A stretch of 64,000 nucleotides of DNA from Myxococcota bacterium (GCA_039028615.1 JBCCHT010000033.1:64001-128000), one strand, 5' to 3'; shown: positions 46,323 through 53,622, counted from the first letter of the stretch. Numbers and translations are program-made. Notes: generated by a model from the letters alone, not told the origin.

Positions 46323-49300
46323 TCACTCGGAGGACAGCTCGGCCTCGAGGGCCTTCAAGCGACGAGCGGCCTCCTCGTGGAGGTGGCCGAAGCCGTGGGC
46401 CTCGAGCGCGAGCCGAAGCAACCGCATCGCCTGTCGCTTGCGACGAAGGGTCTCCATGGCGATCGCGGCCGCGAGCAAGCGGTAGTTCTCGGTCTCGTCG
46501 CTCCAGCTCCGTACCCCGCGGGCCCGGGTACGCCGTAGCAAGCGCAACGCGTCGGTCGGGGCGCAGCGCGCCACGAACTCCACGCTGTCGTAGTCCACGT
46601 AGCCGTACAGACGATGGGTCCGCCCCAGCGACTCGACCAGGGGGCGGACGAAGAACGAGCGCACCCGCGGGGTGGCCCCCGCTTCGATGAGCAAGCGGCT
46701 CGCCTGGAGGCACGTGGGCGCAGGGAGCCGCTCGGGATGGCGAAGCAGCGGCAGCAGGGACACGACCAGCTCGGGTCGCTCGGTGAGCTCGGGCAAGGCC
46801 AGCAGCTTCGGTCCGAGTCCCTCGTCGACGTGGGTGCGCCCGAAGGTCTCCATGAGCAGAGCAGACAAGCGGTTGGGTCGTACGGACGCCAGCGCGGCCC
46901 GAAACGCGGACTCGTCTTCCAGCTCGGCGTAGCGCCCGGTGATGTCGACGGGGCCGTCGTCGTACCAGTCTTCGGCCACGAGCTTCGGGATGGACCCGTG
47001 GGACACCAGCGGAGCCCCCATCGCCTCCGCGAGCCGGCGGACGAAGGCGTCGGAGTGCTCATCGAAATCCGAGTCGGCATCGTGGGCGTAGGGGTAAAAG
47101 GGCAGCAGCGCTCCTTGCTGCGTCAGGCAGACCAGCCGCCGACCTTGGACCCGACCCCGCTCGTCCCGGGCGTAGATCACCCGCTTGTTGATGTCGGCCG
47201 CGTTGGCGAAGACGGAGAAGAAGTTGCACTCGCCCGGGCTGAGGCAGGTGCCGAAGTGGCGCCCCATGTGAAAGACCTCGAGCGGGTCGTCCTCGAGGCT
47301 CAGGCGCAGCGATGCCTTCCGGCCGCCCACCACCACCTCGCCGATCCCGTCGAGCCACGGGCCGGGGTCGATGGGCGATTGCCGCAGCGTCTCGATGAAC
47401 CCCGCGTTGGCGGGGTGATCGCGAAGGTCCCAGGGTTCATCGCTCGCCCGACGCACGAGGAGCATCTCGAACAGCCGCCGGGTCTGCTTGGACTCCGAAG
47501 CCAGCGGCCCGAGCAGCCCGATGAGGCGGTCTTCGAGCAGCCACGGGGTCGCGGAATCGAGGCCGTAGTGCTCGGCCAACGCCGGGCGGAGGCGAGCCAC
47601 CGCAGCCTCCTCCAGGCCTGCGACCAGGGCCAAGCCGCTTCGCCGCTTCAGCTTGCCGCGCAGGGTGTCTCGCTTGACCTCCGAAAGCGCCGTGGCCGGC
47701 CCCTCGCGGCTCGCCAATCGCTGCTTCAGGGTCGCGCGACGCTTGCGGAGGGCGGCGGCTCGCTCGGCCGAAGCCTCGGACACCATCCGCTCCACGGCTC
47801 GTAGCTCGGCTTCGATGGACGCATCGCCCCGATGCACCGAGCGCAGCACCTTGGCCGCGATGGCCCGGGCCCGCGGCGTGAACCGGGTCAGGCGCTCGAG
47901 CTCGCCGCGCAGTTCTTCGGGGTATTCGGCGATCCAGTCGCTCTCCTCGGGCTCGCGCGTGATCGAGCCCGACGGCAGCGGCGCCCCCAAAAACTCGAGG
48001 GCCGCGAGCTTGCGGCCGCAGGACACCAGCGCACCGATGTCCTCCTCGAGCGTCAGCGCCCGCAGCAGCGTACGCTCCTCGTCGGTCACGCGGTCGAGGA
48101 CCTGGCGAAGCGCCTTGGCGATCAGCTCCGCGGAGTCCTCCCGGCGATTGAAGAAGTCGAAGACCCGGGCGAACACGTCCACATCGGGCTCGGCCACCAT
48201 CCACGCGGCACGCAGCTCATCGGCGTTGCACCACTGCTCGTGCCGATCGACCGTCGACAGCCCCACGAGCAAGCGGGCCGCGAGCTCGCCGTCGTGAAAG
48301 GCCCCCACCACCGCACACAAGGTCTCGGCGCTCTCGGTCAGGTCGATCTCGGGCGCATGCCGTCGTAGCCAGGCCAAGCCGGTGAAAAAACGCGGGATGT
48401 CGCGGGCCTCGAAGTCCTCCTCGAGCAGGTCCTCCAACAAGCCGTAGAACCCGGAGCCCTTGGTCGCCGCCCGAATCGTGTCCTCGCGCCAGGGTGCGAA
48501 GGCATCGTCGTCCGCGGAGGCCGTGGCCAGGTCGGCCGCCAGCGCGCGCAGCAAGACGGGGGCTCGGCTCGCCTCCCACCCGGGATCGTCGTGGCGAAGG
48601 CGCTCGAAGTGGATCAGCAACCCCGCGCGCGCGGCCACCCCGGGCGACTCCCCGACGTGGCGAAGCGCCTTCGAGGCCGCCGCGTGGTAGCCGGAGGGCT
48701 CGTCTGCGCTGGCGCCCTGGAGTGCAGCGGTCAGGCCCTCGAGGTCGAGCTCGTCGGGTGCTCGCTCGACGATGGCCTGGCGCTCTCTTCGGAGACGCTC
48801 GATGCGGTCGCTCTTGCCCTTCGACGGTTCCTCGTGCGCCTGGATGTGGTGAGCCTTGTGGGTCACTCGCGTCAGCGCGGGCCACCAGGCGTCCCACTCC
48901 CCGATCAGCGCCGACAGATCGCAATGCTCGAGCAGCCGAAGAAAACGCTTGGCGCGCGCGGTGTCGACCTGCAGCAGCCAATCGACCCAATCCTCGATCT
49001 GCGGGACCAGGCGCAGCTTCGCCGGCTCCGGCAGCGTTCCTCCTCGCTGAAAGATCGCGGCGCTCTGCTCGACGAAGGGCCGGCCGCCCTTGATCGCGGT
49101 GCGGTAGGTCGCCGGGTCGGCCAGCAAGCGCATCAACGGCTCGACCGCCTTGGGTCGCGCCGCCATCGCGAGATGAGCACAGCGAATGCTCAGCCGGACT
49201 GCCTCGTCGTGACTGCGCTGCTCGTGCACCACCGTCAGCGCGTCGGCTCGCCGTAGGACCCAGGCCAGGTACTTCGGCGCCAACGAGGCCCGGGTGGCCA

Positions 49301-49682
49301 GGACCCACGAGAGCGCATCCACCACGGGCTGCAACACAGGATGCTCGCGCCTCATCGCTCGCGCCCGATTGACGGCCGTGCGCGAGTACAGGTCCGCCGA
49401 CCACAGCTCGTCGGGCAGCGCTTCCCCGCGGTGCACCCAGGGCTTGAGCGTGCCCAAGACCCCGCTCACCGCCGCATGCCATGCCGCGACATCCCCCACC
49501 AACTTGGGCATCGCCCGCGGGAACTCGCCGCGCAGCTTGTTCGCCGTGAAGGTGGCCCGACGCAGATGGTTGCGATCGAGCGTCAGCACTTCCGGGCCAC
49601 GCTCCCCCTCTTCGGGCACCACCACCCAATCGTCGCCACGGGGATAGCCCTTCAGCCACCACAGCTTGGCCTTCATCAACAT
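46323..49682 (-). CDS. Large hypothetical protein (about 1120 aa) with conserved-Cys domain (possible PcfJ/GNAT-like)
   Basis: Long ORF with coding-like codon bias; DPLEVFHMGRHFGTCLS...NKRVIYARD..G...GR motif; start uncertain (49676, 49682 or 49829). Confidence 0.7.
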   Translation of the reverse strand: MLMKAKLWWLKGYPRGDDWVVVPEEGERGPEVLTLDRNHLRRATFTANKLRGEFPRAMPKLVGDVAAWHAAVSGVLGTLKPWVHRGEALPDELWSADLYSRTAVNRARAMRREHPVLQPVVDALSWVLATRASLAPKYLAWVLRRADALTVVHEQRSHDEAVRLSIRCAHLAMAARPKAVEPLMRLLADPATYRTAIKGGRPFVEQSAAIFQRGGTLPEPAKLRLVPQIEDWVDWLLQVDTARAKRFLRLLEHCDLSALIGEWDAWWPALTRVTHKAHHIQAHEEPSKGKSDRIERLRRERQAIVERAPDELDLEGLTAALQGASADEPSGYHAAASKALRHVGESPGVAARAGLLIHFERLRHDDPGWEASRAPVLLRALAADLATASADDDAFAPWREDTIRAATKGSGFYGLLEDLLEEDFEARDIPRFFTGLAWLRRHAPEIDLTESAETLCAVVGAFHDGELAARLLVGLSTVDRHEQWCNADELRAAWMVAEPDVDVFARVFDFFNRREDSAELIAKALRQVLDRVTDEERTLLRALTLEEDIGALVSCGRKLAALEFLGAPLPSGSITREPEESDWIAEYPEELRGELERLTRFTPRARAIAAKVLRSVHRGDASIEAELRAVERMVSEASAERAAALRKRRATLKQRLASREGPATALSEVKRDTLRGKLKRRSGLALVAGLEEAAVARLRPALAEHYGLDSATPWLLEDRLIGLLGPLASESKQTRRLFEMLLVRRASDEPWDLRDHPANAGFIETLRQSPIDPGPWLDGIGEVVVGGRKASLRLSLEDDPLEVFHMGRHFGTCLSPGECNFFSVFANAADINKRVIYARDERGRVQGRRLVCLTQQGALLPFYPYAHDADSDFDEHSDAFVRRLAEAMGAPLVSHGSIPKLVAEDWYDDGPVDITGRYAELEDESAFRAALASVRPNRLSALLMETFGRTHVDEGLGPKLLALPELTERPELVVSLLPLLRHPERLPAPTCLQASRLLIEAGATPRVRSFFVRPLVESLGRTHRLYGYVDYDSVEFVARCAPTDALRLLRRTRARGVRSWSDETENYRLLAAAIAMETLRRKRQAMRLLRLALEAHGFGHLHEEAARRLKALEAELSSE

Positions 49683-49767
49683 GCGGGCCCGAGCGAGTCC
49701 CGAGGCCCGGGTGTTGGCGGGGGAGTGCGGACGCATGATGAACGCGACTACGATGAGAGTACGTCGG

Positions 49768-49833
49768 CTCGATGTGAACACGCGAATCGGGCTCGTCTCC
49801 TCGACCAAACCCGATTCGCGGCGTTCCATCGAG
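49768..49833 (-). other. Long RNA hairpin in the leader of the large hypothetical gene
   Basis: CTCGATG/CATCGAG, GAAC/GTTC and 11-bp CGCGAATCGGG/CCCGATTCGCG; additional G-U pairs only on the minus strand. Confidence 0.6.
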
Positions 49834-50146
49834 TCATGCTCCAGGTCGTGCCGGTCCGCGCACGGGGCCTTCGGTGCGGGCGGCTCCAGCTCGGCGGAAC
49901 GACCGAGGAGCCGGCTCGGTCCTCGACGGCCGGCGTCATGCTCTTCGTTCCCGCTGCGCAAGGCGACCAATGCCGGGTGTGCCACGCTGCCCTTCCGTGC
50001 CAAAACTCGACGGTACGAGAGCAACTGAAATAGCCACGGGTCGGGAACGGGCCGTCGAAAGATTTCGACGAGGGTGACGTACCCACCGGGGCCCAATTTG
50101 CTCACTCACTCATCGTGAGTTGCACACTCTTCGTGGAGGTGCCGAT

Positions 50147-50184: not shown

Positions 50185-50571
50185 ATGGTCATGGGAGCGC
50201 AGCCGACGATTCGGCTTCGAGAAACACAGATCGACGCGCTGAGCGAGGTGCCGCGATTGGCCATCCTCGAGCGAGTCTGGCGCCTCGTCGAAGACGACTG
50301 GTTGGCCGAGAACGAAGGCGCCAGTCGACAGCTCGGCTACGAGCGAGTGATGGCGGGCATCGAGCGCGCCCGCGGCTATGGCATCGAGACCCCGTATGGA
50401 TGGGGTCGATTCGCCCAGCTGATGGTGATGCTGGGCGACGAGTTCGACCTCGATCTGCCCTGGGCCAAAGAGATCCTGGCGATCCCTCGGCTCCACGAAG
50501 AACACCGCCTCGATCTGGTGGAAGAGCGCGGACTCCAAGACACCGAAGACCTCGAGGGCTCCCAGGAGTAG
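50185..50571 (+). CDS. Small helical protein resembling T6SS effector adaptor/chaperone (DUF4123 C-terminal-like)
   Basis: IRLRETQIDAL...ERARGYGIE...LGDEFD..LPWA..IL pattern, recalled from effector-adjacent proteins. Confidence 0.5.
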   Translation: MVMGAQPTIRLRETQIDALSEVPRLAILERVWRLVEDDWLAENEGASRQLGYERVMAGIERARGYGIETPYGWGRFAQLMVMLGDEFDLDLPWAKEILAIPRLHEEHRLDLVEERGLQDTEDLEGSQE

Positions 50572-50575
50572 CGCC

Positions 50576-52879
50576 ATGGATCCCTTTCCCTACCAGAGCA
50601 AGGTCGAGACCAAGCCCAAGCCCGGCAACAAACCCAACGGCAAGGGCGACGAGAATAGGCAACGCAACAAGAGAAAACGCAACAGGAAAAAAAACAAGAA
50701 CCAGAACAACCTGTCCAAGTCGAAATCTTCGATCACGACGACCAAGTGCAAGAACAAGCAGCGGCTCACCGTCCACGTGAGCCCCTCGCCGCACGCGCTC
50801 ACGTTCGAGGACGACGACAGCGTCGTCGCCGAGATCAAGGCCATCACGACCCCCAAGAAGGTCAAGAGCATCAAGTGGTCGTTCGTGACCAACCCCATCG
50901 GCGCCAAGTTCATCAAGTCCAAGGGCAACACGGCGAGGATCGAGTCGGAGGAATCCGGCACGGTCAAGGTGCGGGTCGAAGCCAAGACGGAGGACCAGAC
51001 GGCTGTCGCCACGTCCGACGTGCATTTCGTGGACGTCTACCTCCCCGAGGTCGTCGCGAAGGTGCTGCCGCCCCAGGAAAAAGAGGCCACCCGCAGCATC
51101 CAGTTCGAGGCCGAGGGCACGCCGAACGATGGAACCTACGCGTGGGAAGACCTCGCCGAGACCAGCGGTGACGTCGCGATCTCCGGGCAGCAGAACAAGA
51201 AGAAGCTGAAGCTCCAGGCCAAGACCCCGGGGACGGCCCAGGTCGAGGTCGCCTTCACCCCGAGCGTCGCCGACGAGCTGACGGCCAACATCACGAGCAC
51301 CGCCGCGTTCTTCCGCATCGAGCCGGCCGTCCAGGCCGTGAAAGGAGCGGGTGCGAGGAGCTCCGGAAAGCTCGTGACGATGGAGGTCAAGGGCACCCCC
51401 GACGCGGGCACCCGCAAGTGGAGCCTGAGCAACAACACGATCGGGGCCACCATCGAAGGCGGCACCAACGGCACCAAGCTCAAGATCCGGAGCAAGAAGA
51501 GCGGCGTGGTCAAGGTCAAGTTCCAGTACACGCCCCCCGAAGCGAAACAGCCCCTGACGAGCCACGGGGCGGCCGTGTTCGTTGCCTGCCCCATCACCAA
51601 GTTCAAAGCCGGGGCGGCGACCGCCTACACCGACATCCCCACGTCGAGGCGCAAACCGATCGAGCTTCTCATCGATCACTCGCCCACGGGGACCAAGAAG
51701 GACCCGGCCGCCTTCAAGACGGGGCGGTTGCTCGTGGAGGCGGACCCCAAGCCCACGAGCATCCAGTCGACGGGCCTCGACGACGAACTCGGCACCTACG
51801 AGTGGAGCAAGCCCGCCAACAACAAGTTCATCCGCATCTCCGCGACGCAGCCCAACCAGCACGGCCGCGACCAGTCCAAGGTGGCGATCGATGCCCTCCC
51901 CAAGACGGGGACCGTGGGACCCACCAACGACTACGCCGTCGAGAAGGTCCAGATCAAGCGCAAGCTCCACAACGTCCCGGTCACCGACACCATCGACGTC
52001 CACGTGCACAAAAAGGGCTGCTCCCAGGTGAAGTGGCGTCGAGCACGGCTCAACAACGTGACGAGCGAGGACCGGCTGAAGGTCTGCAAGCACGCCGCGA
52101 ACCCGCAGTGGGACAACTGGGCGCTGAACATGACCGAGCCCCCGGGAGGAATTCCCGCGGTGGCCTCCAACGGGCACCAACACGGGGGCCCTTGCGGCCA
52201 GTGTTCGTCGGATGCCCGGACGATCTGGCACTACGTCGAGTCCCACAACGACGTCATCACCCACGCCAAGGACCTCGCCAACACGATCGCGACGTTCACG
52301 AGCCGAGAAGACTCGAACAGCGTGAGCTTCCAGAATGCACACGGGACCACGCTCCACGGCAACACGCTGTTCACCAACGAGATGTGGGCCACGTTTCGCC
52401 CGCAGTACTACGACAACGGGAGCAGCACCTACCGCTACCGCACCCGGGGTCGAATGCTCGGGGTCCTGCGGGGAAAGCCCTTGAACTCGAACGCCTGGCA
52501 GTGGATCTACGGGCTGTCCGGCGAGGGCAACCACGGCGGCACGTGGGCAGCCGAGGTCGATGTCCAGTCACAAGGGGGCGACACCAGCCGCGCCATCTCC
52601 GGCTACCTGGTCAACGCTCGGTACGGGCAGACCAGCGGGGTGTTCAACACGAACGCGATGACCTCGAGCTGGACTCGATTCGGCCGCTGCGCGGCAACCC
52701 GAGTCCTCCGTGCGGCCATCGCTGCCAACCTGTGCGACATCCAGCTCGCAGAAGTCTGGGTCTACCCCGGCGGCAACGATCTGTACGGCAACTACGACCA
52801 CGGGTACGAGATCGGCTCGTGTGAACAATGCCGTCGGTACCTGGGCCTCATGTTGTGTGAAACCGGGGTCCGCACCTAG
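50576..52879 (+). CDS. Putative polymorphic toxin: basic N-terminus, Ig-like repeats, C-terminal zinc deaminase-like domain
   Basis: Lys-rich beta repeats (GTY.W, G.VKV); GPCGQC; C-terminal RCAATRVL..LAEVW..SCEQC..MLC; SUKH gene follows. Confidence 0.65.
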   Translation: MDPFPYQSKVETKPKPGNKPNGKGDENRQRNKRKRNRKKNKNQNNLSKSKSSITTTKCKNKQRLTVHVSPSPHALTFEDDDSVVAEIKAITTPKKVKSIKWSFVTNPIGAKFIKSKGNTARIESEESGTVKVRVEAKTEDQTAVATSDVHFVDVYLPEVVAKVLPPQEKEATRSIQFEAEGTPNDGTYAWEDLAETSGDVAISGQQNKKKLKLQAKTPGTAQVEVAFTPSVADELTANITSTAAFFRIEPAVQAVKGAGARSSGKLVTMEVKGTPDAGTRKWSLSNNTIGATIEGGTNGTKLKIRSKKSGVVKVKFQYTPPEAKQPLTSHGAAVFVACPITKFKAGAATAYTDIPTSRRKPIELLIDHSPTGTKKDPAAFKTGRLLVEADPKPTSIQSTGLDDELGTYEWSKPANNKFIRISATQPNQHGRDQSKVAIDALPKTGTVGPTNDYAVEKVQIKRKLHNVPVTDTIDVHVHKKGCSQVKWRRARLNNVTSEDRLKVCKHAANPQWDNWALNMTEPPGGIPAVASNGHQHGGPCGQCSSDARTIWHYVESHNDVITHAKDLANTIATFTSREDSNSVSFQNAHGTTLHGNTLFTNEMWATFRPQYYDNGSSTYRYRTRGRMLGVLRGKPLNSNAWQWIYGLSGEGNHGGTWAAEVDVQSQGGDTSRAISGYLVNARYGQTSGVFNTNAMTSSWTRFGRCAATRVLRAAIAANLCDIQLAEVWVYPGGNDLYGNYDHGYEIGSCEQCRRYLGLMLCETGVRT

Positions 52880-52899
52880 TCCGGGACAGGCAGCTCCTC

Positions 52900-53622
52900 A
52901 TGAGTAGAATCAGCGACAGCATCGACTTCTGCACGCGGGCCAATCCCGCCTATGCCCAGAGCCTCCGCGGCAGCAGTGCGGCCGACATCGCAAAGGTGGA
53001 AGCCGCCATGGGTCGGCCATTGTCGGCCGAGCACCGCGAGTTCCTCGAGACGATGGGCGAGGGAAGCGGCAGTGACTTCGGCAACTTCACCGTCTCGCCT
53101 TCCGTGCTCCTGCAGCTGCGCTCCGCGACCTACGCTCGCCTGCCGCCCGGCGTCGAGCTGCTGGCCGCGCCCACGGACGACGACCTGATGGACGTATTCC
53201 TGGTCCACCGCCAAGACGCCGCCCCTCGCGTGCTTCGGCATCGCCCGCTCGAGTATGTGGACAGCGCCGACTTCGATGTCGCCAACACCGAGGCGATGGC
53301 GGGCGGCCTCGACGAAATGCTGTGCGCGGCCGAGCTGAGCAAGGTCGCCGTCCAGCAACCGCATCTGGTCACGCTCGACGACCACCATCGACGCCCCGAC
53401 TTGCTCGACGAGTTTCGCGCCTTGATGCTGTCGTTCGGCGTCACCCCCTACTTCTGGGCCAACGACTGGTCGTTCGCGGGCACCGCCAAAGGTACGATCG
53501 TGGTGGGCAATCAACCGCCGGGCTGTGGATTGTCGATCGGCGTGGCCGGGCCCGACCGGTGGGCGGTGGCCGCTCTCGCCGGGACCGCCCAGTGGCAGCT
53601 GGAGCTGTCACGCCCGCGTTGA
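52900..53622 (+). CDS. SMI1/KNR4 (SUKH) family immunity protein
   Basis: GSSAADIAKVEAAMGRPLSAEHREFLETMG matches the SUKH N-terminal signature. Confidence 0.8.
   Translation: MSRISDSIDFCTRANPAYAQSLRGSSAADIAKVEAAMGRPLSAEHREFLETMGEGSGSDFGNFTVSPSVLLQLRSATYARLPPGVELLAAPTDDDLMDVFLVHRQDAAPRVLRHRPLEYVDSADFDVANTEAMAGGLDEMLCAAELSKVAVQQPHLVTLDDHHRRPDLLDEFRALMLSFGVTPYFWANDWSFAGTAKGTIVVGNQPPGCGLSIGVAGPDRWAVAALAGTAQWQLELSRPR

Follow-up and report, generated by a model that had tools for sequence, protein, structure and literature searches.

Do three adjacent genes of a Myxococcota bacterium encode an antibacterial toxin, and if so, what chemistry does its C-terminal domain carry? The genes lie at positions 50,185 to 53,622 of a 64,000-nucleotide stretch of DNA (hereafter the window; GCA_039028615.1 JBCCHT010000033.1:64001-128000) in a genome of 12.3 Mb and 94 contigs. 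A first-pass annotation made from the sequence alone had described them as an adaptor, a toxin and a SUKH immunity gene, the toxin ending in a zinc deaminase-like domain with CAA where CxE is normally found. Gene calling confirmed three tightly packed, co-oriented open reading frames (ORFs), separated by 4 and 20 nt (Table 1). Based on homology, conserved catalytic residues, gene context, and the predicted fold and complex, we consider the locus quite probably an adaptor-toxin-immunity cassette for contact-dependent killing with a TrcP-type deaminase warhead. An unusual zinc cytidine-deaminase (CDA) domain, of the type known from the tRNA-editing enzyme TrcP, appears to arm an injected antibacterial toxin here, its immunity gene lying alongside.

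A TrcP-type active site in the C-terminus of the putative toxin

The warhead (residues 479-767) is homologous to the CDA domain of TrcP (hhalign probability 99.1%), and its residues C705, E726, C749 and C752 align with TrcP C282, E303, C324 and C328; the comparison sequence was the Vibrio sp. HDW18 homologue, which has identical numbering, and not the V. cholerae sequence itself. TrcP (VCA0104) is the Vibrio cholerae C-to-U/pseudouridine editor of tRNA-Tyr C32, in which all four residues are essential and the displaced glutamate is required for C-to-U editing (Kimura et al. 2022, PMC9553926). The first pass had pointed to the same motif order in the N-terminal domain of some long RluA proteins, and this kinship holds, that domain being the TrcP CDA domain. 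The suggestion of an undescribed base-editing chemistry is not supported, since the RluA N-terminal domain is a characterised one whose displaced glutamate was already shown to be needed (PMC9553926). CAA with a displaced glutamate is genuine but previously described chemistry, and its use in a toxin is what looks new.

The motif order RCAATRVL..LAEVW..SCEQC was borne out on translation: 52688-52690 reads TGC, the codon for C705 within RCAATRVL, and SCEQC spans 52817-52831. An alignment of 29 rows, which includes 28 of the 34 relatives found, shows no variation at C705, A706, A714 or E726 and has CAA throughout; judging by this conservation, the motifs are not due to chance. The proposed replacement of CxE by CAA, with the acid supplied by the AE-x-W strand, is supported by the alignment of E726 with the essential TrcP E303. 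The modelled warhead also has the CDA/deaminase core fold (a helix and two strands, then a second helix, a third strand and the CxxC helix), which together with the homology to TrcP upholds the predicted deaminase fold.

With TrcP, the warhead shares the three cysteines that are its putative zinc ligands, the glutamate displaced to 21 residues past the first cysteine, and the GxM(F/L)GVL and SG strands. It terminates shortly past the CxxC helix and, unlike TrcP, has a short insert where the long helical tRNA-binding arm would stand. The stretch between the MxGVL strand and CAA measures 66-83 residues in toxins with an immunoglobulin (Ig)-like stalk and 120-156 in stand-alone forms, whose total length is about 250-310 residues; TrcP-like proteins have a median of 206 here, which is why we regard the arm as gone. 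The zinc pair is CxxC instead of the CxxxC of TrcP, as it is in all 34 warhead-type proteins without a pseudouridine synthase (PUS) domain, and the synthase of TrcP has no counterpart in the toxin (no Pfam or NCBIfam match for an RluA domain). The toxin has in turn an extra Cys/His cluster, a fused delivery stalk and an immunity gene behind it. Since the N-terminal (H/C)xGxCxxC motif of this cluster and the terminal cysteine co-occur (of 152 proteins, 36 have both and 109 have neither, with 3 discordant and 4 that could not be scored), the HGGPCxxC motif and C761 probably form a second, structural zinc site.

No match to the toxin was obtained in Pfam, NCBIfam, PADLOC or PDB sequence searches (Pfam and NCBIfam gave none for gene 1 either), Atlas leads for it were all below 0.9, and Foldseek with the warhead model was blank against the PDB and against viral models. 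Since the (H/C)xE motif is what usually reveals deaminase toxins, a family with CAA escapes Pfam, NCBIfam and PADLOC.

Gene contexts and the predicted immunity partner

In a search of 73 genomes of the order, 33 gave a match. We read the 30 best loci of this order search, the 30 best from a sample of 401 genomes of the phylum and one more from this genome. These made up 60 distinct loci, which fall into Ig-stalk toxins (4), PAAR-like fusions (10), TrcP-like forms (20) and stand-alone forms (26). A SUKH-type gene directly follows all 14 toxin-type loci, compared with none of the 46 TrcP-like or stand-alone loci; the profile behind this count is partly circular, having been built from genes at 13 of the 14 toxin loci. 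Independent support comes from the match at G000:C23 (E 7e-12), an empty control set, and three downstream genes that score above the SMI1_KNR4 (PF09346) cut-off. These three are homologues of gene 3 aligned over the full length. The SMI1/KNR4 signature claimed for gene 3 itself does exist as a match, though a weak one (E 0.005; 17.8 bits, where the cut-off is 25.4). Ig and PAAR forms alike, the 14 immunity sequences can be aligned from end to end.

Co-folding of the warhead with gene 3 and two zinc ions returned a complex with the immunity protein over the active site (0.90, versus 0.00 for the best of three controls). Of 157 solved complexes 116 attain that mark, as do 2 of 215 mismatches; these counts apply only roughly to the alignments used here. 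The runs share at least 87% of contacts, with a partner pLDDT (predicted local distance difference test) of at least 91, and the predicted interface comprises the SG motif, the loop before CAA, C705, W728 and C749. This model supports a predicted role for gene 3 in capping the active site and, with the strict pairing, agrees with the toxin-immunity layout first proposed. SUKH proteins accompany several deaminase toxin clades (Table 1 of PMC3239186).

Two further kinds of SUKH-type gene were observed. One at G000:C2:237353-238120 (L049:7354-8121) belongs to the same family, has no toxin upstream under the ORF filter used, and may be an orphan immunity gene. The other occurs at two related loci of the PAAR type, where an extra SUKH-type gene on the opposite strand faces the toxin-immunity pair (L045:9003-9797, L017:32-742).

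Table 1. Features of the cassette, with positions counted from the first nucleotide of the window (aa, amino acids; pTM, predicted template-modelling score)
Feature	Position	Strand	Remarks
Gene 1, small helical protein, 128 aa	50185-50571	+	candidate effector adaptor or chaperone
Toxin gene, 767 aa	50576-52879	+	disordered, basic N-terminal segment followed by four Ig-like domains and, at the C-terminus, a TrcP-type deaminase warhead
Lys/Asn/Arg-rich segment, residues 1-62	50576-50761	+	disordered; net charge +16; pLDDT <50
Stalk, ~residues 65-478	50768-52009	+	four beta-sandwich (Ig-like) domains; structure model, Foldseek
Warhead, residues 479-767	52010-52879	+	TrcP-type zinc-dependent cytidine-deaminase domain; model pLDDT 85.8, pTM 0.87
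H536-G-G-P-C540-x-x-C543	52181-52204	+	invariant in 13 full-length homologues
C705-A-A, start of helix 2	52688-52696	+	predicted first zinc ligand (TrcP C282); Glu absent from usual place
E726, strand 3	52751-52753	+	predicted catalytic glutamate (TrcP E303); invariant
C749-x-x-C752	52820-52831	+	predicted second and third zinc ligands (TrcP C324/C328)
C761, near toxin C-terminus	52856-52858	+	probable partner of H536/C540/C543 motif in a second zinc site
Gene 3, immunity protein (candidate), 240 aa	52900-53622	+	N-terminal SUKH/SMI1-like part and family-wide C-terminal extension; net charge -11

Comparison with known deaminase toxins

Deaminase toxin-immunity pairs are known and so is the TrcP active site; their combination appears undescribed. 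In the DddA (BaDTF1), SsdA (BaDTF2) and BaDTF3 clades (PMC7901873), helix 2 carries (H/C/D)xE (PMC3239186 Table 1), whereas this family has CAA. Pfam models of these clades gave no sequence match to the family, and no deaminase Pfam model matched any of 29 members at E<=0.1. A clade with CAA is likewise missing from Table 1 of Iyer et al. 2011 (PMC3239186). Among the clades of that survey, YwqJ, SCP1.201, Pput_2613, BURPS668_1122, MafB19, DYW, XOO_2897 and OTT_1508 were each rejected as a home for the family, which has an invariant CAA in 29 rows where they have (H/C/D)xE in helix 2.

The YwqJ-like domains (PF14431; PMC3239186), nearest to the warhead in layout, resemble it in Gx[CH] at helix 2, in inserts before helix 2 and CxxC, in truncation after helix 3 and in SUKH-type immunity, but they have Gx[CH]xE where this family has GxCAA. 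Two leads pointed to them, a weak Atlas lead (0.78) and one YwqJ-like protein at E 9e-4 on the family profile; membership is not supported, with hhalign to 10 YwqJ-like domains at 0.4-2.5%. Of 46 genomes belonging to the same family, 9 have canonical YwqJ-like domains (L085-L097), most of which end frames of 1500-1900 codons. Full-text literature searches, which had most subscription papers outside their scope and to which survey supplements could still add members, found no paper on TrcP-type domains as toxins.

Proposed mechanism and substrate

We propose that gene 1 would act as chaperone of the 767-aa effector or load it onto a contractile injection system whose genes lie elsewhere. Inside the target cell, the C-terminal domain would bind zinc via C705, C749 and C752, and E726 on strand 3 would act as the acid, as in TrcP, converting cytidine to uridine in nucleic acid by homology to that tested enzyme. 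The product of gene 3 is predicted to shield the producer by capping the active site. TrcP needs its long helical arm to hold tRNA-Tyr; lacking this arm, the toxin would be expected to have a lower selectivity than TrcP.

The substrate may well be DNA, most likely single-stranded, although we hold this tentatively; tRNA or another RNA is almost as likely, and free nucleotides or other substrates are unlikely. The three deaminase toxins tested so far mutate DNA, and SsdA does so too, though its DYW relatives edit RNA (PMC7901873). We found no report of interbacterial killing by C-to-U editing of RNA. It is less likely than not that the toxins kill by such editing and that TrcP was recruited from the toxin lineage, acquiring its tRNA-binding arm and its pseudouridine synthase partner in the process. 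If this were true, the PAAR-fused warheads, with their non-canonical active site and a length of about 155-200 residues, would amount to compact C-to-U editors of RNA.

The toxin could alternatively catalyse something other than nucleic-acid deamination, its TrcP-like zinc site having been turned to nuclease activity or to the deamination of free nucleotides or cofactors. The missing tRNA-binding arm and the substitution of CxxC for CxxxC would be consistent with such a change, as would the closest solved structures, 3oj6 (the best neighbour) and 3b8f, both of which act on small molecules. We nevertheless regard it as improbable, given that all four catalytic positions are conserved, that the tested deaminase toxins mutate DNA (PMC7901873) and that SUKH proteins go with several deaminase toxin clades (PMC3239186 Table 1).

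Family range and relationship to TrcP

The N-termini that carry the warhead vary, comprising Ig stalks, PAAR-like PF13665 tips (5 of 5 tested match PF13665) and choice-of-anchor-D repeats. The family shows the polymorphic-toxin trait of a toxin domain placed C-terminally on differing delivery N-termini. An RluA ORF adjoins 15 of the 26 stand-alone loci compared with none of the 14 toxin loci, as counted by phmmer after a loose motif test had given chance matches. In a 65-row tree, the Ig-type cores (99/93) and the PAAR-type cores (100/98) each fall on one side of a branch, and TrcP and the stand-alone forms interleave; this tree is unrooted with two long branches, and the direction from toxin to TrcP or the reverse is not readable from it.

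These contexts bear on whether the warhead could instead belong to a housekeeping or regulatory TrcP-related RNA editor, with gene 3 as its regulator and no weapon involved. The close kinship with TrcP would suit this explanation, as would the stalk's never having been found with another warhead and the failure to detect TrcP or a split TrcP in this genome. It is made very unlikely by the existence of PAAR-like fusions, the strict SUKH pairing that is absent at TrcP loci, tandem SUKH-type genes at two loci, the lack of an RluA partner at any toxin locus, and the patchy occurrence (4 of 73 genomes of the order).

This genome encodes a second toxin of the family, a very divergent 441-aa PAAR-like fusion with CAA..E..CxxC (C23:90465-91790), which was missed by the first core profile and recovered via its PAAR-like domain. 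Its locus (G000:C23:88406-92536; L048:6407-10537) consists of a DUF2169 gene, the toxin and a SUKH-type gene. Named relatives of the Ig form come from Sorangium (WP_437849388.1 among them), an Acidoferrales and a Verrucomicrobiae bacterium. A pattern scan of the genome contigs yielded one weak locus (L009; 39 residues, E 3e-4), and a PAAR-type warhead used as query retrieved only four records, two of them annotated as pseudouridine synthases. A metagenome scan with P0021, of the second Ig subgroup (P0020-P0036), confirmed 0 of 66 candidates, and plasmids gave no match to this warhead.

Several variants stand apart from these forms. P0035 and P0038 (332 aa) carry a warhead-like CxxC domain on an unrelated helical N-terminus and lie on a long branch between the Ig toxins and TrcP, and P0026, P0031 and P0032 have a Cys-rich CxxCxGxG repeat inserted in the warhead, with Ig-like repeats behind it. 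Eleven stand-alone loci (L021, L023, L024, L029, L038, L059, L066, L068, L078, L032 and L035) have no RluA match or SUKH gene within 1.5 kb; at L032 and L035, the motif test did flag a neighbouring ORF.

Delivery, stalk and surroundings

Gene 1 was proposed as an adaptor and is a candidate for that role: it has no match to PF13503 (DUF4123), the only such match in the genome being on C19, but its Atlas structure match is to the non-Pfam part of a DUF4123-containing protein (TM 0.64 over 117 residues). DUF2169 and DUF4123 proteins are T6SS (type VI secretion system) adaptors, and the DUF4123 adaptors are likewise small genes directly upstream of an effector, although they carry PF13503 and gene 1 does not (PMC7714669). 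A gene 1 homologue lies just upstream at all four Ig-stalk toxin loci. This genome has 20 ORFs of the gene 1 family; many of them precede effector-like genes, and the family could mark unknown effectors. It has no Pfam model, some members are tandem doubles, and the effector-like ORFs behind them are diverse.

As anticipated, injection machinery is encoded elsewhere in the genome: TssC, TssF, seven VgrG/gp5 OB-fold matches, two loci of extracellular contractile injection systems (eCIS) marked by Pvc16, and four DUF2169 genes. TssC is split over two contig ends (the end of C34 and the start of C19), so that the T6SS cluster spans an assembly gap. Beside the PAAR-like forms are genes that we take, by recognition, to be ketoacyl-synthase-like, Pfam having given none. 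The cassette's neighbours do not fix the route, and we favour T6SS over eCIS since a DUF2169 gene heads the second toxin and gene 1 partly resembles a protein that contains DUF4123. An effector that acts on eukaryotic prey or grazers and leaves through one of the two eCIS loci, with the Ig-like stalk as targeting or spacer part, would fit those loci, the stalk and the fact that neighbouring genes do not fix how the Ig form is delivered, but is highly improbable given a dedicated cytoplasmic immunity protein, which implies that bacteria, the producer included, are sensitive, and given PAAR-like forms that sit with DUF2169 and ketoacyl-synthase-like genes, T6SS-adaptor kinds (PMC7714669).

For the antibacterial cassette that we prefer, the toxin's N-terminal parts agree with much of the initial description. 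The protein is rich in Lys and Asn (8.3% and 5.9%) compared with five other genes measured (0.8-4.8% and 0.8-2.2%), and its gene has native-like codon usage with a third-position GC content (GC3) of 0.90. It lacks a signal peptide, with no hydrophobic stretch in residues 1-70 (best 11-residue Kyte-Doolittle mean -0.44); residues 1-62 are possibly a loading signal. The Ig-like repeats were not detected by self-BLAST or Pfam but are visible as four all-beta blocks in the structure model and by Foldseek, whose matches were to the Ig arrays of titin, cadherin and contactin (E 1e-15 to 1e-10), and two toxin homologues have Pfam Ig_3 and Big_2 matches. Swapping of C-termini on this stalk, raised at first pass, was not seen: among 73 genomes of the order, the four that carry it all have the same warhead, and a wider search for it on other warheads recovered the query alone. 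The PAAR-like carriers within this genome have differing C-termini.

Promoter and terminator scans at the cassette were near chance level, and a look-up of sequencing runs listed no RNA holder. A divergent 1260-codon ORF on the minus strand (46323-50105) has no Pfam or NCBIfam match above cut-off and is not part of the cassette in three related loci read.

Significance

The cassette points to an unrecognised family of base-editing toxins, which would give a toxin branch to deaminases so far represented by a single tRNA enzyme. Kimura et al. suggested an independent origin of TrcP's active site (PMC9553926), and the family offers a direct test of that suggestion. That editing enzymes can derive from toxin clades is documented (PMC3239186). 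The Sorangium homologues mean that work is not tied to this genome, and these small, arm-less domains, predicted to catalyse C-to-U conversion and supplied with their own inhibitor, would be a starting point for base editing comparable to DddA.
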